32,000 bases of DNA from Synechocystis sp. PCC 6803 substr. PCC-P (GTDB taxonomy: Bacteria > Cyanobacteriota > Cyanobacteriia > Cyanobacteriales > Microcystaceae), in NCBI RefSeq assembly GCF_000284455.1, contig NC_017039.1:3360001-3392000 (forward strand), written 5' to 3'. Both the position numbers and the translations under genes were made by a program. This document shows, piece after piece, positions 5,119-20,224 of this stretch. The notes beneath the pieces were generated by a model. It was not told the DNA's origin. It searched no databases and saw only the letters and a list, made by a program, of their open reading frames with translations. The stretch's first letter is position 1; the number at the start of each line of letters is the position of its first letter.

Positions 5119-5192
5119 TGGACGTAACTGGATTCGAACCAGTGACCCCATCGATGTCAACGATGTACTCTAACCAACTGAGCTATACGTCC
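5119..5192 (-). tRNA. trnV: tRNA-Val (anticodon GAC), CCA not encoded
   Basis: The reverse complement reads GGACGTA-TA-GCTC-AGTTGGTTA-GAGT-A-CATCG-TTGACAT-CGATG-GGGTC-ACTGG-TTCGAAT-CCAGT-TACGTCC-A. The acceptor, anticodon and T stems are fully paired. The T loop is the canonical TTCGAAT. The anticodon loop is TT-GAC-AT. Confidence 0.95.
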
Positions 5193-9073: not shown

Positions 9074-9850
9074 ATGACCAATGCCACCAGCGAAAGCCTC
9101 AAACTTGAGACTCTGAGACTGTTCAAAATCTACGCAGAGTCCCACGATATTGGCGTGCGTAATCGGATTATGGAAGTCAATCTGGGTCTGGTGAGAAAGG
9201 AAGCGCACCATTGGACGGCCCAGTGCAATGAAAGTTTTGAGGATTTGTCCCAGGTGGGGTGTTTGGGTCTGATCCGAGCCATTGAACGGTTTGATGTGAG
9301 TAAGGGCAATGCCTTTAGCTCCTTTGCCATTCCCTATGTGCGGGGAGAAATCCAGCATTTTCTGCGGGATAAAAGTAACTGTGTTCGTATTCCCCGGCGT
9401 TGGTTAGATTTGGGTCGTCAGGCGATCGCCGTCCAGCAGGAATTTCGCCTCAAATATGACCGGGCGGCCACGGACGAGGAAATTGCACAAATTTTAGCAG
9501 TGCCCCTGGCGGACTGGCAGGAAACCAAACTGGCGCTGCAGAATCGTGAACTGGTGAGTTTGGACACCAAGGTAAATGGCGACGATGAAGGACAAGTTAA
9601 TCTGGGGGATTGTTTAGCCCACCACGAATTCCGTAGTTTTCAACTCAGCCAGGAAGATCAAATCCGTCTGCAACAGGCCTTAGCCGGTTTGGAAGAACGT
9701 ACCCGCCGCATTGTGGAATTTGTTTTTCTCCACGACTTTACCCACAAGGAAGCCGCCGAAATGATGGGGGTTAGTGTGATTACCGTTTCCCGTCGCATTA
9801 AACAGGGCATTGGGGCTCTGAAAAAAGCCTTAAATACGGAAATTTTTTAA
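9074..9850 (+). CDS. sigF: Group 3 (SigF/SigB-type) RNA polymerase sigma factor
   Basis: 258 aa. Sigma-70 region 2 is visible (EDLSQVGCLGLIRAIERFDVSKGNAFSSFAIPYVRGEIQHFLRD). Region 4.2 has an HTH (THKEAAEMMGVSVITVSRRIKQGIGALKKAL). The small size and missing region 1.1 fit a group 3 sigma. The neighbourhood matches my recollection of Synechocystis sigF. Confidence 0.85.
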   Translation: MTNATSESLKLETLRLFKIYAESHDIGVRNRIMEVNLGLVRKEAHHWTAQCNESFEDLSQVGCLGLIRAIERFDVSKGNAFSSFAIPYVRGEIQHFLRDKSNCVRIPRRWLDLGRQAIAVQQEFRLKYDRAATDEEIAQILAVPLADWQETKLALQNRELVSLDTKVNGDDEGQVNLGDCLAHHEFRSFQLSQEDQIRLQQALAGLEERTRRIVEFVFLHDFTHKEAAEMMGVSVITVSRRIKQGIGALKKALNTEIF

Positions 9851-11545: not shown

Positions 11546-12592
11546 TTATCGGGCAAGGGCACTGAGGTCCCAGATTTTTACGGTTTTGTCCTCCGCACCG
11601 CTGTAGAGGGTATTGCCGTCGGGACTAAAAGCTAGGGAAAGAACCCAGCCTTGGTGACCCCTCAGGGTAGTAACCTGTTTGCCGTTGGCTAAATCGAAGA
11701 TCATAATGGTTCCTTCTTTGTTCGCAGTAGCTACCCAGCGATTATTGGGGGAAACGGCGATGGTATTAATTTCTAAACTGGGGCCTCTGACGGAAAACAA
11801 CTCTTTGGCATCGGCTAAGTTCCAAGCTTTAACAAAATTCCGCACCGCTCCTACCAGTTTTCTGCCATCGGGGGTCACAGCTAAGCCGTTGATGAAACCT
11901 GGCTGTTGGGGAGAAGTGCCCAGTAATTCAAAGGTGTTGGCATCCCAAAATTTAATGGTGCGGTCCTGGCCGATCGCCCCGGTGATAAATTGACTGCCGT
12001 CGGGGGTGAACACAACGCTGGTAGTAGGGCCGAGGTTATCCGCTAGGGTTTGTATCAAGTTGCCCGATGCCCTTTCCCAAATGCGAATGGTGCGATCGCC
12101 ACCACTAACGCTCACAATAGTTTCTCCGTCGGGACTAAAGGCCACACCACTGACCTTATCCGTGTGGCCAACCAGGGTTTCAACCCTCATGCCATCCCGA
12201 ACCCGGCGCACATCAACATTATTGTCAGCGGCGATCGCCAACCATTGACCATCGGCACTAATGGCTAAATCAGCAAAATTATTGACGGGACTCCTTTGGC
12301 TATAAACCACTTCTTGGTTAGCTAAATCAATCAGGGTGATTTGGTTATCCGCCGTAGCCACAGCCAAATATTTACCATCAGGGGTGATGTTGAGGGCAGT
12401 GATAATGCCTTGAAAACCGCTCAGATTTTCCACTGCCACCGACGGACTGGCCGTAGTTTGAGCAACTGTGTATGGGTTAGGGGTGCTGGCATTAGCGTGG
12501 GCATTCTCGCCTGGATAAACTAGGCAAGCAACGGTCAAAAAAAATGTAGCAGGGGCAGAAAATTGTTTCAATCGAGGGAAATAGTTGTTCAT
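11546..12592 (-). CDS. Secreted/periplasmic WD40-repeat (beta-propeller) protein
   Basis: 348 aa. A signal-peptide-like N-terminus ends in AHA. WD-type blades repeat (GHTDKVSGVAFSPDGETIVSVSGGDRTIRIWE, DRTIKFWD, GHQGWVLSLAFSPDGNTLYSGAEDKTVKIWD). Confidence 0.85.
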   Translation of the reverse strand: MNNYFPRLKQFSAPATFFLTVACLVYPGENAHANASTPNPYTVAQTTASPSVAVENLSGFQGIITALNITPDGKYLAVATADNQITLIDLANQEVVYSQRSPVNNFADLAISADGQWLAIAADNNVDVRRVRDGMRVETLVGHTDKVSGVAFSPDGETIVSVSGGDRTIRIWERASGNLIQTLADNLGPTTSVVFTPDGSQFITGAIGQDRTIKFWDANTFELLGTSPQQPGFINGLAVTPDGRKLVGAVRNFVKAWNLADAKELFSVRGPSLEINTIAVSPNNRWVATANKEGTIMIFDLANGKQVTTLRGHQGWVLSLAFSPDGNTLYSGAEDKTVKIWDLSALAR

Positions 12593-12875
12593 CTTAAAAA
12601 ATAGTTAAGTTACTAAAACGTTCGCTTACTTGATTATAATAAGCGTTACTTAAAGTCTTTTTATAAGGTTTTAGTCCATCTTCTCAACCGACCCCCTAAA
12701 AATCTGTTGATAATAAATAATTTTTGCTAATCCTCCTTTTTGATGGGACGGATAGGAACAATTGATTATCACTTCTAGACTCTTCCAACACATTCTCAGG
12801 CAATTTATCTTGGGAGTACTATTTTAAAAAATATCAATAAATCATATACATTTGGCAACATTAGCCCTAACTTAA

Positions 12876-13004
12876 CCTAGAATGTGTTTACAAAGTTTTA
12901 TTTTGATCCCCAAATCTCCTGACTAAGGCTTCGGCAATGCTAGGAAACTTTCACTCAGTTTTTCTCCAAATTTGGGGAGTCAGGGGGGCTTGCAAAACAG
13001 GCTC
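12876..13004 (-). repeat. Dispersed MITE-like repeat, copy A (inverted relative to copies B and C)
   Basis: The reverse complement aligns by eye with 15414-15540 and 26337-26454. Shared blocks are AGCCTGTTTTGCAAG, CCCCAAATTTGG, AAAACTGAGTGAAAG, GATTTGGGG and AATAAAACTTT. Confidence 0.7.
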
Positions 13005-13117
13005 TTAATTAGCGGACTGATCAATTATTTGTCATTGGTTAATCAAGTGGTTTATATTTAATTGATTTATTCAGACCGGTTCAATATCTTTTGATCTATT
13101 TTTGACTATTAAAATAT

Positions 13118-15415
13118 ATGAAACTTTTTCATTGGCTACTTTATTTCACCACGTTCAGTTTACCAGGAATAATTCCCTGCCCTGTTTTAGCCAATGAAGT
13201 TCTCAATTTTACTAACTTTACCCCTACCACGGCAGAATTAAATGATGACTTCCCATTGGAAAAGACAATCAGATTAGAGCCATTTATAGTAGAAAATATT
13301 GCCGATTTAAGAGCCGCTGAATCAAATCAAGAGCCATGGCAAACTTCCGTAGATTATTCCCATAGCTTGACCTCCAGCACCCTAACCACGGAGGATTTAA
13401 GGGGCCAGTCAACACAGTTGGTACAGCTTACAAGCCAAGCATTAACTGAGCCAACAAAAGAAGGAGAACAAGATTTTTTGCCAGCCATAACTCCAGAAAA
13501 AAGTTCCTATCCGGAGAGTATTACCCAACAGTCGACCAACACAGAAAATAGTGAACAGCTTAGCCCCAACCCAATAGCTGACACTGCCCAAAATGACGGT
13601 TGGCAAATTTTTATTACCCCCGGTGCCATCCTACCCATTAATGCCTATGGGTCAGCCAGAATTAGGAGAGTTCAGGGTGATTATCACCTTACCACTGCGG
13701 ACATACTGGAAAAATTAACAGTTTATGCTGGGGGAAGAGTCGAAGCTTGGCACGGTAACTGGGGCATTATTTTGGATGGATTTTATTATAATTTGCAGGG
13801 AGCTACCACCAATCAACGGGACAATTTTACTGGCTTAGCATCTTTTAGTCCAATTAATTATTTACTCAACACAGATATCAATAATCGTTTGAATGGAATT
13901 AGTGACATTCTTGTCGACCAGTCTGATATTTTACAGCAAAAGAAAAGTGATATTAACCAAAGTCTAGACCAAATTCAATCTGAGTTTGAACTGGTGCGCA
14001 ATGCAGCTCCCGATCGCCAGGAGTTAATGGCGGCGATCGCCTCAGCTTCGGCCAAAATTGAAGCATTGCAAGCCTTGGGTAATGCCATTGACCGGGAAGC
14101 TATTGGGGCTTGGGCGGAACAAATTAACGAACTGAAAAAGATGGTGGAGGAGGGCAACCTTGGGGAACGGGAAATCGAACAAAAATTAGCCCAACTCCAG
14201 ACCGTCCTAGCTGCTGCCCAGGGTTTTCGGGACAATGCCATTGGTTCTATTGATCGTCTGGAGGACCGAGTGCAACAACGGGTGACGGAAATTCAAACCT
14301 TTGCTGCCCAGTTGCAAAACCTGAGGGAAGAAACTAGAGAATTGCTGGCCACATTGCCCCTCGAAGAAATTGACCGTCGGGATTTGGCCAAAATTGCCCT
14401 GGGGGGCCTAGATAAAATAAAGGAAATTGAGGGCGATCGGGACCGTTCCACTTTGGAAAATATCATCGACCGGATGGAAACTGCCCAGGATAAGTTGGAG
14501 GCAGTGCGTGCCTTACAGACGGAAATTCAAACGCGCATTGCTAATCTTCGTTCCAGGGAAGATCTAGGGGCATTGCAGAAAAAATTGGCGGAAACTAGGG
14601 AAAAAGTGGGACAAGTGCGGGAGGCGATCGCCAATCTAGAGAAAATTAAGGATTCCCATCTAGGGGAAATTATTCAAATCCTCCAAGACAGTAATGCCAA
14701 GGAAAACTTGATTCAATTGCAAGAAGCACTGGCCAAGTTGCAATCGCTCAAAAATAATGCAAATTTTGCCGATGCCTTACAAGATTTAGCCAAACTAGAC
14801 CAAATTTTGGCCAATGAAGAGCAAGTAATTGCCGCCATTCGGACTGAACTTTACGGGGCAGGGCAACGGGATTTAACCATTGATACCAACACCGAGCTAT
14901 CCGTCAGCGAAACTACCGTTGATCTAGCCATTAGCTACCATTTTGGCGACGCCCGTCCTGTTTACGGTTCAGGAAGCCAGAGCAGAAGTTATCCCCAGTG
15001 GTGGTTTGAACCCTACATCGGAGCCAGGTTGATCAATCTCAGCTTTGCCCTGGACCAGACCACTAACTACCGCTATAACAGCTCCCTAGTTTCCCTGGCG
15101 GGACAATTCCAAATTAATGAAACCGCTAGCCGCACTTGGATTAATCCCTTAGTGGGGGGAAAATTGGGGGTGCAGTTGACGGATACTTTGGCCCTTTGGC
15201 TCCGGGGGGATGTGTCCGGCTTTGACCTATCGGGGGAGGCGGATTGGAATTGGAACGCCATTTTAGGACTAGATTACTATGTAAGAGAAAATGTGGCCAT
15301 CCAGCTAGGTTACAAATTTTATAGTTTGAAGTATGGACAGGGCAGTGGCGACGATGGTTTTGATTTTTCCCTGAATTTGAATGGCCTCTATTTGGGTTTG
15401 ACCCTAAGGCTTTAG
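13118..15415 (+). CDS. Secreted protein with a predicted outer-membrane beta-barrel split by a long coiled-coil insertion
   Basis: 765 aa with a signal peptide (MKLFHWLLYFTTFSLPGIIPCPVLA). The layout is an S/T/Q/E-rich linker, then beta-strand-like segments (WQIFITPGAILP, GRVEAWHGNWGIILDGFYYNL), then about 330 aa of heptad-rich helix. The C-terminus has alternating-hydrophobic strands (VDLAISYHFG, PYIGARLINLSF, LALWLRGDVSGFD, WNAILGLDYYV, VAIQLGYKFYSLKY, LNGLYLGLTLRL). Confidence 0.7.
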   Translation: MKLFHWLLYFTTFSLPGIIPCPVLANEVLNFTNFTPTTAELNDDFPLEKTIRLEPFIVENIADLRAAESNQEPWQTSVDYSHSLTSSTLTTEDLRGQSTQLVQLTSQALTEPTKEGEQDFLPAITPEKSSYPESITQQSTNTENSEQLSPNPIADTAQNDGWQIFITPGAILPINAYGSARIRRVQGDYHLTTADILEKLTVYAGGRVEAWHGNWGIILDGFYYNLQGATTNQRDNFTGLASFSPINYLLNTDINNRLNGISDILVDQSDILQQKKSDINQSLDQIQSEFELVRNAAPDRQELMAAIASASAKIEALQALGNAIDREAIGAWAEQINELKKMVEEGNLGEREIEQKLAQLQTVLAAAQGFRDNAIGSIDRLEDRVQQRVTEIQTFAAQLQNLREETRELLATLPLEEIDRRDLAKIALGGLDKIKEIEGDRDRSTLENIIDRMETAQDKLEAVRALQTEIQTRIANLRSREDLGALQKKLAETREKVGQVREAIANLEKIKDSHLGEIIQILQDSNAKENLIQLQEALAKLQSLKNNANFADALQDLAKLDQILANEEQVIAAIRTELYGAGQRDLTIDTNTELSVSETTVDLAISYHFGDARPVYGSGSQSRSYPQWWFEPYIGARLINLSFALDQTTNYRYNSSLVSLAGQFQINETASRTWINPLVGGKLGVQLTDTLALWLRGDVSGFDLSGEADWNWNAILGLDYYVRENVAIQLGYKFYSLKYGQGSGDDGFDFSLNLNGLYLGLTLRL

Positions 15416-15695: not shown

Positions 15696-16106
15696 ATGAA
15701 ACCTGAATTTGCCACTGTCCAGGCCTGGGAACAGGCAGATTGCCTGATGCAACCAGCTCTGATTCGCACCATTGACCATCTGCGACAAGGTTTGGAAAGT
15801 TGTCCCTGGCGCAGTCGCTACGAGGAGGTGCAGGAACCCATCCCAGGCCATCGGTTAATTCTGGAAAATGAGGGGCAAACCTACGGAGTTAACATTTGGG
15901 ATTTATGCTTTCAAGTCTGCTTTGCCAATTATCAAGCCCAGCCCTTTGGGGATAACTTGCCGGAGAATAATCAGGCTTTGGCAGTGGAAATAGACCAGGA
16001 CTTATTTAACGACCAAGGGGAAGTGGATTGGACGAAATTAGACCATAAAGCTCGCCATTGCGTGGAAGTATTTTTAGCCGCCCTGCCCACCGTTGGCCAT
16101 AGTTGA
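15696..16106 (+). CDS. Hypothetical protein (no family recognised)
   Basis: 136-aa ORF with an ATG start and composition like the neighbouring genes. Its last 33 nt overlap the 3' end of the convergent larB/cpmA ORF. Confidence 0.5.
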   Translation: MKPEFATVQAWEQADCLMQPALIRTIDHLRQGLESCPWRSRYEEVQEPIPGHRLILENEGQTYGVNIWDLCFQVCFANYQAQPFGDNLPENNQALAVEIDQDLFNDQGEVDWTKLDHKARHCVEVFLAALPTVGHS

Positions 16107-16913
16107 TTTTGATTGCAGGCGATCAACCGTGCGGAGAATTTGTCCTGCCAACATGGCCGCTCCAAAGCCGTTGTCAATATTGACTACCCCCACCCCCACT
16201 GCACAGGAATTGAGCATGGTTAACAGGGGAGCCACGCCGCCGAAACTGGTGCCATAACCGACGCTGGTGGGTACGCCAATCACAGGACAGTCCACTAATC
16301 CCGCCACCACACTGGGCAAAGCCCCTTCCATACCGGCCACCACAATCAACACATCCATGGCTTGGATTAATTCTCGATGGCTCAACAGTCGGTGAATGCC
16401 GGCAACTCCCACGTCCCAGAGTTTCTCCACTTTGAACCCGCAGAGGCTGGCAGTGATGGCCGCTTCCTCCGCCACGGGTAAATCCGCTGTACCTGCACTG
16501 AGAACGCCAATGGTACCGGAATATTTAATTTGTAAAGGGGTTTGCACCAGGGCACAAATGCGAGCTTGGGGATAGTACTGCAATAGAGGAATGCGATCGC
16601 CAAGGAGATCCGCCACCTCCGGCTCCACCCTGGTCACTAGCACCACCGGATTATGCACTGCTAAGACCTGGATAATCTGCTCAATTTGTTCTGGGGTTTT
16701 GCCTGGGCCCCACACAACTTCTGGAAAACCCGTCCGCAGTTGCCGCTGATGATCCACTTTGGCAAAATCATCGATCGCCTGGAAACTGAGGTGTTTAAGC
16801 TGCTCAAAACCCTCTTGGCTACTGATGTGGCCACTGGCGATCGCCGTGAGCAATTGTTGGAGGGAATCTGGGGTCATCGGTGCAGAAAACTGAAAAACAG
16901 GGCCACTGACCAT
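16074..16913 (-). CDS. larB: LarB-type NCAIR-mutase (PurE)-related protein; homolog of circadian phase modifier CpmA
   Basis: 279 aa. The C-terminal PurE-like fold shows GVLSAGTADLPVAEEA, IVVAGMEGALPSVVAGL, VIGVPTSVGYG and NIDNGFGAA. The N-terminal domain is typical of LarB/CpmA. Confidence 0.8.
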   Translation of the reverse strand: MVSGPVFQFSAPMTPDSLQQLLTAIASGHISSQEGFEQLKHLSFQAIDDFAKVDHQRQLRTGFPEVVWGPGKTPEQIEQIIQVLAVHNPVVLVTRVEPEVADLLGDRIPLLQYYPQARICALVQTPLQIKYSGTIGVLSAGTADLPVAEEAAITASLCGFKVEKLWDVGVAGIHRLLSHRELIQAMDVLIVVAGMEGALPSVVAGLVDCPVIGVPTSVGYGTSFGGVAPLLTMLNSCAVGVGVVNIDNGFGAAMLAGQILRTVDRLQSKSTMANGGQGG

Positions 16914-17956: not shown

Positions 17957-18616
17957 GTGCTCTACAAAATTCGCCACTATCCCAACTCGGTGTTGGCCGT
18001 TACGCTCAAACCCAAGGAACGGCTCTACATTAACCCCGGTTCCCTAATTAGCATGGATGGGGGATTGGTCGTTAGTCGGGTTTGTGGTGGAGGCTGGCTC
18101 CGGGCCTTGGCTCGGTTTTTATTGGGTAAAGAAAACTTAATGGTTAATGCCATCCATAATCCCAGCGATCAACCGTTAAGTTTTACCCTAGGCAAAGCCT
18201 TACCAGGAAATTTGACCAGGCTAGACTTACCCAAAAATGGCATAGTCATCAATCCAGGAGTACATGTTGCCCATACCAGCGGCGTCAATATGGGGGTGTA
18301 TTGGCTCGGTCTATCCAGTTGGTGGGGGGGGCAGGGTTTATTCGGTTTGAAACTCCAAGGTAAAGGCCGCGTCTTCCTTGGTAGCTACGGCACCCTTAAC
18401 CAGTTGTCCTGCCCCCAGAGTTTTGTGGTGGAGCACTCTCATTTAGTAGCGTTTCAGCCCAAGCTCAAGCTCAAAGTTAATTTTCCCCGGGGTATTGTTG
18501 GTGATCTCCAGTCCGGTCGGGGGCTGAGTTCCCTTCTAAAGGGCTCCGGCAACCTCTATTGGCAATCCCGTAGCTTGAGCAGTTTAGGCCGTTTTATCCG
18601 GCTCCGACTGCGCTGA
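17957..18616 (+). CDS. AIM24/DUF124-like protein, paralog 1 of 3
   Basis: 219 aa with a GTG start. Motifs are LYINPGSLISMDGG, LPGNLTRLDL, GQGLFGLKLQGKGRVFLGSYG and VVEHSHLVAFQPKLKLKV. These match my memory of the DUF124 (TIGR00266/PF01987) pattern. Confidence 0.65.
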   Translation: MLYKIRHYPNSVLAVTLKPKERLYINPGSLISMDGGLVVSRVCGGGWLRALARFLLGKENLMVNAIHNPSDQPLSFTLGKALPGNLTRLDLPKNGIVINPGVHVAHTSGVNMGVYWLGLSSWWGGQGLFGLKLQGKGRVFLGSYGTLNQLSCPQSFVVEHSHLVAFQPKLKLKVNFPRGIVGDLQSGRGLSSLLKGSGNLYWQSRSLSSLGRFIRLRLR

Positions 18617-18635
18617 TTTTTTCTTTGCCCGCCCT

Positions 18636-19316
18636 ATGAACATTAAACTTCTCAATTCCCCCCAAACGGCGATCGCCAGGGTACTTCTGGAGGCCAATGA
18701 AGAATTAGCAGCCCAGCATGGTTCTTTAATTGCCATGAGTCCCGACATTACGGTGCAAAGTTCCGTGCGGCGCACTAGCGATGGAGCAGGGAAACAGAGT
18801 AGCCGGGGCAATCAAGTTAAAACCATGTTTTTAAACAATTATCGAACCGGGGAAAATGGCGGTGAAATTTACCTGGCCCCTCCCCTAGTGGGAAACCTGG
18901 GGCACTATCAACTGGGCGGGAGGAAATTAATTGTCCGCCAAAGCTCCTACCTAGCATCCGATGGCAAGGTGGACATTTTCATGGGCTACAAATCCGCCGC
19001 CAAGAAAGAACCCTATTCCTGGCTGAGTTTGGTGGGCGTTGGAGATGTGTTAATCAGCTCCTTTGGGGCCATGTATTCCCTGGAAGTGAATGGCAAACAA
19101 ATTGTCAACTCCGACCATGTGGTGGCCTTTGATAACAGCCTCAAAGTTAAGCCGTATCAAGAGTTGCGTCCCTGGCCCAAACGTCTGGTGCCCAACCAAG
19201 AAATCCTCTATGAATTCAGTGGCACAGGTACAATTTTTTGCCAAACCCATGGTCCTCGGAATTTTGCTCGGGAAGTGGGTCGCCAACTCAAACCGGAAAA
19301 CTTCAAACTGCGCTAA
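18636..19316 (+). CDS. AIM24/DUF124-like protein, paralog 2 of 3
   Basis: 226 aa, starting 19 nt after paralog 1. Equivalent blocks are AAQHGSLIAMSPD, LVGNLGHYQL, LSLVGVGDVLISSFG and VNSDHVVAFDNSLKVKP. Confidence 0.6.
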   Translation: MNIKLLNSPQTAIARVLLEANEELAAQHGSLIAMSPDITVQSSVRRTSDGAGKQSSRGNQVKTMFLNNYRTGENGGEIYLAPPLVGNLGHYQLGGRKLIVRQSSYLASDGKVDIFMGYKSAAKKEPYSWLSLVGVGDVLISSFGAMYSLEVNGKQIVNSDHVVAFDNSLKVKPYQELRPWPKRLVPNQEILYEFSGTGTIFCQTHGPRNFAREVGRQLKPENFKLR

Positions 19317-19369
19317 ATCATAAACCGAAACCACTAATATCATTGCCCTGTAACTGAAATCTGCCCGCC

Positions 19370-20224
19370 ATGATGGAAGAAGAATCCCTAGAAAAGCTCG
19401 AAGAAAGTCTAGAACAGATCGACCCTGAGGAGGATTTGGAAGAGGATTACACCCAACATCTCTTTGCCCATCCCCGGGAAGCAGGGGGAGATAACCAGGT
19501 ACGTCCTACAGATGATGAATTTAATCTTCCCTACAGCATTAATGGCCATGCCCTGTACGCCACCCTGGAGCTGACCCTGAAGCCCGGTCAAATTGTCCTT
19601 GTTGATGCCAATGTAGTCACTGCCATGGACCGTTCTGTTCTCTTTGTTAACAAATTGCGGGGGGGATTGTTGGATGTCCTCCGTAAAGCCCTAGGGATAG
19701 ATACCCTATTTCTTAACCAATTTACGGCAGAACAAAGCGTTGGCCACCTGCAATTGGCGCCAGCCCTACCGGGGGATATTTGTCATTATTTTTTAACCAC
19801 AGAAAAAGGTATTTATCTCCGGGCAGATAACTTCCTGGCCTGCCAACCAACGGTGAAAATTGACACTAATTTCGCCAGTATGAAGCATTTTTATAACGAT
19901 AGTGAGAGTTTTTTATTGCGTTTAGTCGGACAGGGGGATTTGTGGTTCAGTCTTTATGGTGGTTTGGTGCAGGTTTCCATGAACGGCGATCTGGCCTATA
20001 ATCCCGATTACATTGTTGCATTTGAAGATACCCTGGATTACCAAATGACTAAACAGGAGGGGCTCGCCGTCGATCGCCTACGGGGGGACGTGTGGGGTGG
20101 TAAGGGTAGATTGTGCCGCTTCACTGGCCAGGGGAAAATTTGGCTCCAGGCCCGTCAGGCCAATAGCTTTTTGAACTATGTCCAATCAATTTTGCTCAAT
20201 TTACGTTTTCCCCGACTGAATTAG
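19370..20224 (+). CDS. AIM24/DUF124-like protein, paralog 3 of 3, with an acidic N-terminal extension
   Basis: 284 aa, starting 53 nt after paralog 2. The first approx. 55 aa are highly acidic (MMEEESLEKLEESLEQIDPEEDLEEDY). Then come LKPGQIVLVDANVVTAMDRS, LPGDICHYFL, LLRLVGQGDLWFSLYG and NPDYIVAFEDTLDYQM. Confidence 0.6.
   Translation: MMEEESLEKLEESLEQIDPEEDLEEDYTQHLFAHPREAGGDNQVRPTDDEFNLPYSINGHALYATLELTLKPGQIVLVDANVVTAMDRSVLFVNKLRGGLLDVLRKALGIDTLFLNQFTAEQSVGHLQLAPALPGDICHYFLTTEKGIYLRADNFLACQPTVKIDTNFASMKHFYNDSESFLLRLVGQGDLWFSLYGGLVQVSMNGDLAYNPDYIVAFEDTLDYQMTKQEGLAVDRLRGDVWGGKGRLCRFTGQGKIWLQARQANSFLNYVQSILLNLRFPRLN

Follow-up and report, generated by a model that had tools for sequence, protein, structure and literature searches.

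A barrel domain interrupted by about 350 helical residues is encoded by a gene at positions 13118 to 15415 (+ strand) of a 32,000-nucleotide stretch of contig NC_017039.1 (positions 3,360,001 to 3,392,000; the whole stretch is hereafter called the window). Comparison with homologs and structure modelling showed that the two strand segments flanking the insert are parts of one barrel domain that the insert splits. Overall, we read the product as a small outer-membrane barrel in which the tip of the β3-β4 hairpin has probably been expanded into a two-armed helical rod at the cell surface, and we give this reading a probability of about 0.62. A passenger embedded in a barrel loop is known in kind, but the cyanobacterial subfamily with a length-variable coiled-coil hairpin described here is new. 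No paper was found that describes the embedded-stalk barrel architecture of the window protein. A sequence-only reading of the window had placed the open reading frame (ORF) exactly, and in the ORF list the frame is open across all 765 codons. The layout of gene and protein is as follows (aa, amino acid position; pLDDT, predicted local distance difference test score).

13118-15415, + strand: whole gene by ORF call, ATG start, 765 codons plus stop
13118-13192, + strand: signal peptide, aa 1-25 (MKLFHWLLYFTTFSLPGIIPCPVLA / NE), with a hydrophobic N-terminus and a modelled helix at 2-13; cleavage site read by eye from the sequence
13193-13597, + strand: T/E/S/Q/P-rich disordered linker, aa 26-160, from composition and pLDDT 28-44
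13598-13831, + strand: N-terminal barrel part, aa 161-238, with strands 163-182, 185-212 (short helical bulge 193-199) and 215-238; pLDDT 90-95
13832-14869, + strand: helical insert, aa 239-584, at the tip of the β3-β4 hairpin; helices with pLDDT 52-84 and heptad periodicity
13850-14350, + strand: hairpin arm 1, aa 245-411, with the conserved entry motif SPINYLLNTDIN; DSSP helices 245-249, 252-296, 300-320, 323-344 and 350-411
14351-14437, + strand: hairpin tip or turn, aa 412-440 (LPLEEIDRRDLAKIALGGLDKIKEIEGDR), with pLDDT <50 at 409-436 and Pro413 at insert fraction 0.51
14438-14854, + strand: hairpin arm 2, aa 441-579; DSSP helices 440-475, 480-524, 528-545 and 548-579
14870-15412, + strand: C-terminal barrel part, aa 585-765, seven strands, ending ...GLYLGLTLRL; pLDDT mostly 86-97

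One barrel domain in two sequence segments

Both strand segments are barrel-like in composition, with 13% aromatic residues and 12% Gly at aa 161-260 and 15% and 11%, respectively, at aa 591-765. The stretch between them (aa 261-590) is rich in L, A, E, I and Q and contains 1.8% aromatic and 31% charged residues. Compared with shuffled sequences, the two-residue periodicity typical of strands is strong in the C-terminal barrel segment (z=5.1), while the N-terminal strand segment, which is short, reaches z=1.4 only and is below significance by itself. The L..LAN motif of the signal peptide is kept in the consensus of the cyanobacterial clade.

Searches of the whole protein against Pfam, NCBIfam and PDB sequences returned no curated family above threshold, only sub-threshold matches. 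Those to SMC, TIP20, DUF2730 and PUMA_CC fall in the coiled coil and were taken as coiled-coil noise. A match of aa 648-754 to PF13505 (OMP_b-brl, a general barrel domain of the OmpA/Opa-like type) scored 17.1 bits (E 0.006), short of the gathering threshold of 28.7 bits, and the same model was weakly matched by 14 of the 88 family members scanned individually (best E 4e-5), which suggests a remote superfamily link and not membership. No solved structure was detectable by sequence for the barrel family, the best match being NspA at E 0.02. A full-length word-indexed search returned Synechocystis orthologs only, with coiled-coil words filling the candidate list; a further homolog, P0006, was found by searching with the C-terminal strand region alone.

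P0006 is an insert-free homolog: its matches to the two strand segments of the window protein follow one another without an intervening segment. In BLASTP alignments, aa 162-235 correspond to P0006 residues 7-76 (E 3e-17) and aa 593-765 to residues 90-261 (E 4e-43). An exhaustive search with P0006 identified 2,525 cluster representatives (50% identity) at E <= 0.001, most of them 260-450 aa long and covered by a single contiguous match. A family hidden Markov model (HMM) was built from 60 short members. Its positions 26-106 align with aa 147-235 of the window protein and positions 109-269 with aa 588-764. Because these matches are contiguous in the profile and apart in the protein, ~352 residues are inserted between adjacent profile positions. 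By these sequence comparisons the window protein is assigned to an unnamed, ~250-aa, P0006-like family of outer-membrane barrels.

The near-invariant family residues W162, E209, D220, Y223, Y607, R637, W674, G701-F702-G703 and G756 are all present in the window protein, and P757 is replaced by Leu. Family members occur in many cyanobacteria, Gloeobacter, Planctomycetota, gammaproteobacteria and alphaproteobacteria, including Microbulbifer and Ruegeria/Shimia, and carry source names such as 'porin family protein', 'outer membrane protein' and 'opacity protein-like surface antigen'. Among the listed family proteins no precomputed Pfam match falls on the barrel; the only entry is PF12296 on P0211, which is taken to fall in the helical insert. 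This large barrel family, which lacks a Pfam model, deserves one. A second, minor insertion hot spot was seen in the family at profile positions ~54-60, where 35-115 aa are inserted (P0081, P0122, P0065, P0082, P0059, P0063); by alignment to P0006 it lies near the short helix within the second strand.

Structure models agree with the split-domain arrangement. An AlphaFold model of the window protein was generated from a 100-sequence alignment in which >90 rows cover each barrel part. DSSP assigned strands at 163-238, helices at 245-579 and strands again at 585-764, with pLDDT of 90-97 for aa 160-230, mostly 86-97 for aa 590-765, 52-84 for the helices and <50 for the linker and aa 409-436. The model of P0006 is confident (pLDDT 92, predicted template modelling score (pTM) 0.87). 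In it, a long hairpin is made of strands 60-82 and 85-104, and the two residues at its tip, P83-N84, mark the insert site. In Foldseek searches against the PDB, every match at E <= 0.001 was an outer-membrane barrel, both for the full window model and for the P0006 barrel. The proposal made from the sequence alone that N- and C-terminal strands form one barrel was thereby supported: insert-free homologs are contiguous, both parts are modelled as a confident barrel (pLDDT 90-97) around a helical insert, and only barrels were recovered. The Foldseek matches to the P0006 barrel (TM, template modelling score) were:

OmpT, 10 strands: TM 0.57
OpcA, 10 strands: TM 0.50 / 0.56
Pla, 10 strands: TM 0.51
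Legionella Dot/Icm porin I (PDB 9nh1), top match: TM 0.57 / 0.58, E 2e-7
8-, 12- and 14-stranded barrels: TM 0.25-0.37, normalised by query length

The barrel is probably 10-stranded, if the DSSP assignment is read as a first strand that carries a bulge and a second strand that includes a short helix. Of the generic features of barrels that depend on the barrel-assembly machinery (BAM), a signal-like N-terminus, a confident barrel and an alternating hydrophobic C-terminus are present, with Leu instead of the terminal aromatic residue.

The helical insert across relatives

The insert shows a hydrophobic periodicity of 3.5 residues (z=5.2 against residue shuffles), the heptad pattern of a coiled coil. 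Residue autocorrelation is highest at lag 7 (z=3.9) and weaker at lags 14 and 21; in the window insert, lag autocorrelation gave this heptad signal only. The sequence-only reading had described an uninterrupted helical, heptad-rich stretch at aa ~260-590. Helix and heptads were confirmed, but the stretch is not uninterrupted: the model is broken at ~297-299, 321-322, 345-349, 412-439, 476-479, 525-527 and 546-547 into eight helices of 18-62 residues, with a low-confidence gap at 409-436.

Species-representative genomes were scanned and insert lengths taken from domain tables. The scan returned 42 loci, and in 19 of these, all from unicellular cyanobacteria, an insert of 115-359 aa is found at the same profile position. 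Individual lengths are:

359 aa: Pannus, Microcystis aeruginosa, Microcystis novacekii
353 aa: Synechocystis salina
334 aa: Cyanothece sp. BG0011
280 aa: a Microcystaceae metagenome-assembled genome (MAG)
235 and 217 aa: Crocosphaera
217 aa: a Synechocystis MAG
208 and 127 aa: Snowella
204 aa: second S. salina gene (paralog)
197 aa: Geminocystis
215 and 115 aa: Cyanobacterium RI_101

Insert-free genes are found in Aphanothece, Chroococcus, Chroococcopsis, Merismopediaceae, Pseudanabaena and Kovacikia. In other lineages the same tip carries inserts that are shorter (40-97 aa), unrelated, and either helical or rich in Pro/Gly, so the hairpin tip is a general insertion hot spot. Long inserts have in common the entry motif P-x-I-N-x-[LV]-[ND]-[FYW]-[LV]-L-x-x-x-[IV]-N and an exit motif, and their middles are ~25% identical. 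Some inserts contain tandem repeats by lag autocorrelation: the repeat unit is 19 aa in Microcystis (z=8.2) and 21 aa in P0017 (z=11.9).

Most inserts of 186-359 aa carry a proline motif, [LIV]-P-x-[ED], at insert fraction 0.48-0.57. In the window insert, which holds three prolines at fractional positions 0.03, 0.18 and 0.51, it is represented by Pro413. The central Pro is present in 15 homologs at any insert length, and its mean distance from the midpoint is 0.03 compared with 0.116 by chance (0 of 5,000 simulations as extreme). The lengths of the two arms covary (r=0.79, p=5e-4, n=15), a value that is indicative only since the proteins are related. An antiparallel, two-armed helical hairpin is strongly indicated by the break lying at the midpoint whatever the insert length, by the covariation of the arms and by the two ends rejoining adjacent strands. 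With arms of ~160 and ~140 residues at 1.5 Å per residue, the rod would measure roughly 21-24 nm if fully extended.

Conservation is highest at the tip. Compared with the ortholog of PCC 7338 (84% identity overall), aa 412-440 are 97% identical, ahead of the C-terminal barrel part (91%), the arms and N-terminal barrel part (87-88%) and the linker, which is the least conserved segment (64%). Full-length orthologs are kept in PCC 7338, CACIAM 05 and S. salina. Variants of 715, 719 and 762 aa within the 90% cluster are explained by alternative starts, contig truncation and a 3-aa linker deletion and leave stalk length unchanged. Some relatives are disrupted: P0003 from Synechocystis sp. B12, a fragment, stops after 468 aa with the frameshifted residues 'GENWGCS', and at two loci, L013 (5707-7491) and L020 (5596-7421), the gene is split into two ORFs. 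These three are either pseudogenes or assembly errors.

Orientation of the insert and known systems

BAM-assembled barrels have both termini in the periplasm, and in solved OmpT-like barrels the tall rim is extracellular. In the models of both the window protein and P0006, seven strands follow the insert. With a periplasmic C-terminus, this strand count would put the insert on the extracellular rim. On the tall rim, where hairpins 1-2, 3-4 and 5-6 have strands of 20-28 residues as in OmpT-like barrels, the insert occupies the end of a hairpin of 20-24 residues. The rim with the termini has the tight connections of 2-4 residues (213-214, 687-690, 724-725) that periplasmic turns would be expected to show. 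Strand count and tall rim together make an outward orientation likely, and the stalk projecting from the outer membrane that had been suggested from sequence fits this topology and the OmpT-like superposition, although it is not proven.

We hypothesize the following mechanism. The signal peptide would be removed, and the ~135-residue disordered linker would stay in the periplasm. Three N-terminal and seven C-terminal strands would assemble into the barrel, with the tip of the long β3-β4 hairpin, two residues in insert-free relatives, carrying the ~350-residue insert. This insert would form the heptad hairpin, with arm 1 of ~160 residues, the conserved proline tip and arm 2 of ~140 residues. 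It could be exported as a loop during barrel assembly, as has been proposed for Hop ('type Vf') passengers, and the resulting rod on the extracellular rim would project from the cell surface. As a working model, the rod may act at the surface as a spacer, a tether or an adhesin, with arm length determining how far it reaches, and related cyanobacteria would tune their arms between ~100 and ~180 residues, partly via tandem repeats.

A more specific proposal is tentative and rather doubtful. It holds that a Hop-like or type V-like loop passenger was invented independently by unicellular cyanobacteria, that a monomeric 10-stranded barrel exports its loop-2 insert as a length-tunable, ~15-26 nm coiled-coil ruler whose conserved tip engages an outer envelope layer (surface layer (S-layer) or sulfated/exopolysaccharide (EPS) matrix), a partner cell or phage, and that arm repeats set the spacing. 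We know of no explanation for the anchoring of the Synechocystis S-layer, and no usable literature value was found for the distance between S-layer and outer membrane in Synechocystis.

Several observations weigh against the surface-rod reading. The loop-length variability of the β4-β5 connection, on the supposed periplasmic rim, equals that of the insert site. The insert is modelled at a pLDDT of just 52-84, and overall pTM is 0.45. The N-terminal strand count is ambiguous between 10 and 12, with orientation unchanged by either. The protein ends in Leu (...LGLTLRL, the last four residues at 15401-15412) and not in the usual aromatic residue; Synechocystis orthologs do likewise, and the family consensus is Phe, which makes the C-terminal β-signal an atypical one. 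The window allele has Leu757 (codon 15386-15388) at a nearly invariant Pro, part of the motif NG-P-[FY]LG just before the last strand that is kept in the Synechocystis orthologs P0001, P0275, P0276, P0002 and P0004. The exact window protein with Leu757 is found on 128 contigs, and P757L looks like a lineage-specific change that might affect assembly. Finally, the genes that neighbor the barrel gene elsewhere, encoding a DUF1400 hydrolase and MarC, are absent at the window locus.

In a rival reading, barrel and hairpin are the same but the rod points into the periplasm, where it would reach toward peptidoglycan or the inner membrane as a tether or spacer, in the manner of the coiled-coil stalks of OmpM and SLH-porins, Lpp or the helical domain of TolC. 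Such a rod would not need to have 350 residues exported across the membrane, the loop-variability comparison did not confirm the assumed topology, and the β4-β5 connection on the opposite rim is long (19-20 residues). Barrel-attached periplasmic coiled coils are also the commoner precedent (OmpM, PMC10628300). We nevertheless consider a periplasmic rod unlikely, since the seven strands after the insert and a periplasmic C-terminus put the insert on the other rim, since its 20-24-residue hairpin belongs to the tall rim, which is extracellular in OmpT, Pla and OpcA, and since the short connections 213-214, 687-690 and 724-725 are on the termini rim.

An insert that lies at the surface could also be compact, either a multi-helix bundle or proline-punctuated amphipathic helices lying along the membrane or lipopolysaccharide (LPS) in the manner of apolipoproteins. 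The division of the model into eight helical segments of 18-62 residues would fit this, as would the Microcystis and Pannus inserts, which consist partly of 19-residue repeats that are separated by DSEP and are not heptad multiples. However, the window insert has three prolines only, in addition to its lag-7 signal, and a single conserved midpoint break over a threefold length range is predicted by a hairpin and not by a multi-turn bundle, making a compact insert quite improbable. It is far less probable still that the architecture is an artefact, be it a gene fusion, a foreign or mobile coiled-coil segment in a barrel gene, or a pseudogene. The AT-rich 5' part of the gene, the split or truncated relatives (P0003, L013, L020) and the Leu at nearly invariant Pro757 could be cited for it. 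Against it stand the open frame of 765 codons, full-length orthologs in PCC 7338, CACIAM 05 and S. salina, the same in-frame design at 19 genome loci, a locus that is collinear within the genus and detection of the protein.

Helicobacter Hop adhesins are, by analogy, closest to the window protein in architecture, and the barrel family is unrelated to them: neither the window protein nor the barrel family members have a Helicobacter OMP/Hop-type Pfam match. Hop passengers carry ligand-binding head domains, whereas the window protein has a plain two-armed heptad hairpin of variable length without a head and belongs to another phylum and ecology. The Hop adhesins have been described as having an 'interrupted β-barrel' with the passenger as a prolonged loop, for which type Vf was proposed (PMC9289746). 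In BabA, SabA and HopQ, as in the window protein, a small monomeric barrel is interrupted by a large, mainly helical insert, which in Hop is surface-exposed (PMC9289746). In Hop, the passenger separates strand 1 from strand 2 of an 8-stranded barrel (PMC9289746), whereas the window insert follows strand 3 of a probable 10-stranded one.

OmpT, Pla and OpcA gave the best superposition on the insert-free barrel (TM 0.50-0.57) and, like it, have long strands that on one rim stand clear of the membrane, but they lack a helical insert. No sequence similarity to these three barrels was detectable, and the window protein has no omptin Pfam or PDB sequence match, so the likeness is at the fold level only. 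Legionella porin I (9nh1) shares 11-12% identity, and from its 256-residue length no insert is evident. TolC, an obligate trimer, builds a 12-stranded barrel from four strands of each chain, and a channel is formed by its helices in the periplasm. The P0006 model, in contrast, is a complete monomeric barrel, and the window protein has no Pfam match to the OEP family that would place it in the TolC/outer-membrane factor (OMF) group. What it has in common with TolC/OMF proteins is that helical hairpins are interleaved with barrel strands in one polypeptide (review PMC8277102). OmpM and the cyanobacterial SLH-OprB porins, as well as trimeric autotransporter adhesins, likewise combine a coiled-coil stalk with a barrel, but the stalk is appended N-terminally and not embedded; OmpM stalks are periplasmic and carry an SLH domain (PMC10628300). 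No SLH or YadA-anchor Pfam match was found in the window protein. The architecture, considered unusual from sequence alone, is indeed so, with precedents nonetheless in Hop (PMC9289746) and in the textbook case of TolC. Nor is the window gene alone in having it: the architecture marks a subfamily at 19 or more loci of unicellular cyanobacteria.

If the rod is surface-exposed, the window protein would represent a second, evolutionarily independent barrel that carries an exported passenger inside a loop, in what is probably the genetically tractable model organism Synechocystis PCC 6803. How the barrel-assembly machinery exports large loops could be studied in a series that nature has already supplied, from insert-free relatives to those with inserts of 115-359 aa. 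The molecular basis of surface layers, colony formation, vesiculation and phage adsorption in Synechocystis and Microcystis is poorly explained; if the reading is true, the rod would give the surface of Synechocystis and of bloom-forming Microcystis a defined component that extends ~20 nm outward.

Locus, base composition and neighborhood

The noncoding features considered at the locus are:

12593-13117, + strand: AT-rich intergenic region (GC 0.34-0.36) 5' of the gene, which is divergent from the WD40 gene at 11546-12592 (- strand)
14033-14040, no strand assigned: HIP1 palindrome GCGATCGC, exact match
14624-14631, no strand assigned: HIP1 palindrome GCGATCGC, exact match

The AT-richness noticed earlier at the start of the gene and upstream of it was reproduced: GC content is 0.34-0.36 across 12600-13400 and 0.39-0.45 on to ~14000, compared with ~0.50 in the flanks. 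The AT-rich coding stretch corresponds to the poorly conserved T/E/S/Q-rich linker. One promoter-like site, at 13029-13058, fits the consensus at 10 of 12 positions; it is no more than a consensus match, and such matches were not more numerous in the region than in shuffles. The two HIP1 sites, which had been placed near 14030 and 14625, start at 14033 and 14624; with 31 sites per 32-kb window, two within the 2.3-kb gene is ordinary density. The corresponding locus of S. salina (L003) is collinear with the window at ~85% DNA identity. Recent horizontal acquisition as the cause of the AT-richness was rejected on the presence of HIP1 sites and genus-level collinearity, which instead argue for vertical inheritance within the genus, in line with the initial view that the gene was not acquired very recently.

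Gene order in the window is sigma factor, GT2 glycosyltransferase, WD40 gene (-), barrel gene, 136-aa ORF, AIRC/CpmA-like gene (-) and M23 peptidase gene (-). The group-3-type sigma factor gene is located at 9074-9850 (+ strand), ~3.3 kb 5' of the barrel gene, and we take it to be probably sigF (slr1564). SigF controls pili and secretion in PCC 6803. The gene order fits the series sll1491 / x / x / sll1489 (cpmA) / sll1488 in a proteomics supplement (PMC8670252), and because of this match, which is one of gene order and not of sequence, the barrel gene is probably slr1567 of Synechocystis sp. PCC 6803. The slr1567 product was detected by proteomics solely in the envelope ("debris") fraction. 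The 136-aa ORF at 15696-16106 (+ strand), directly 3' of the barrel gene, has no Pfam match and lies inside the stretch collinear with S. salina L003; its 3' end overlaps that of the convergent AIRC/CpmA-like gene (16074-16913, - strand) by 33 nt.

In other genera, the barrel gene is part of a recurring same-strand cluster (L004, L023-L026, L028, L033, L034 and others). A gene for a secreted DUF1400 (PF07176) α/β-hydrolase is found 12-73 nt downstream of the barrel gene, and the gene 4-45 nt upstream encodes either MarC (PF01914) or a secreted protein of 157 aa to which no family is assigned. Genes for MscS, a solute-binding protein (SBP_bac_8), a sulfatase, DUF2808, DUF1254/DUF1214 and Pilin_GH are often nearby. 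The DUF1400/MarC/barrel cluster may represent an envelope module. A transfer of function from it to the window gene was rejected, as the cluster is absent at the window locus. A second Synechocystis paralog with an insert of ~204-224 aa is seen in S. salina LEGE 00031 (L015, 5716-7524) and in a PCC 6714-type protein of 498 aa (P0211), with the MarC neighbor retained. The window locus lacks these adjacent neighbors, whereas MarC is still present beside the shorter S. salina paralog. On this pattern, the window gene seems to be a paralog of the longest stalk class that has moved and diverged.

Elsewhere in the window, the AIM24 family (PF01987) is represented at 17957-20224 (+ strand) by three paralogs in tandem, of 219, 226 and 284 aa, and the sole Rfam match is a tRNA gene at 5119-5192 (- strand).

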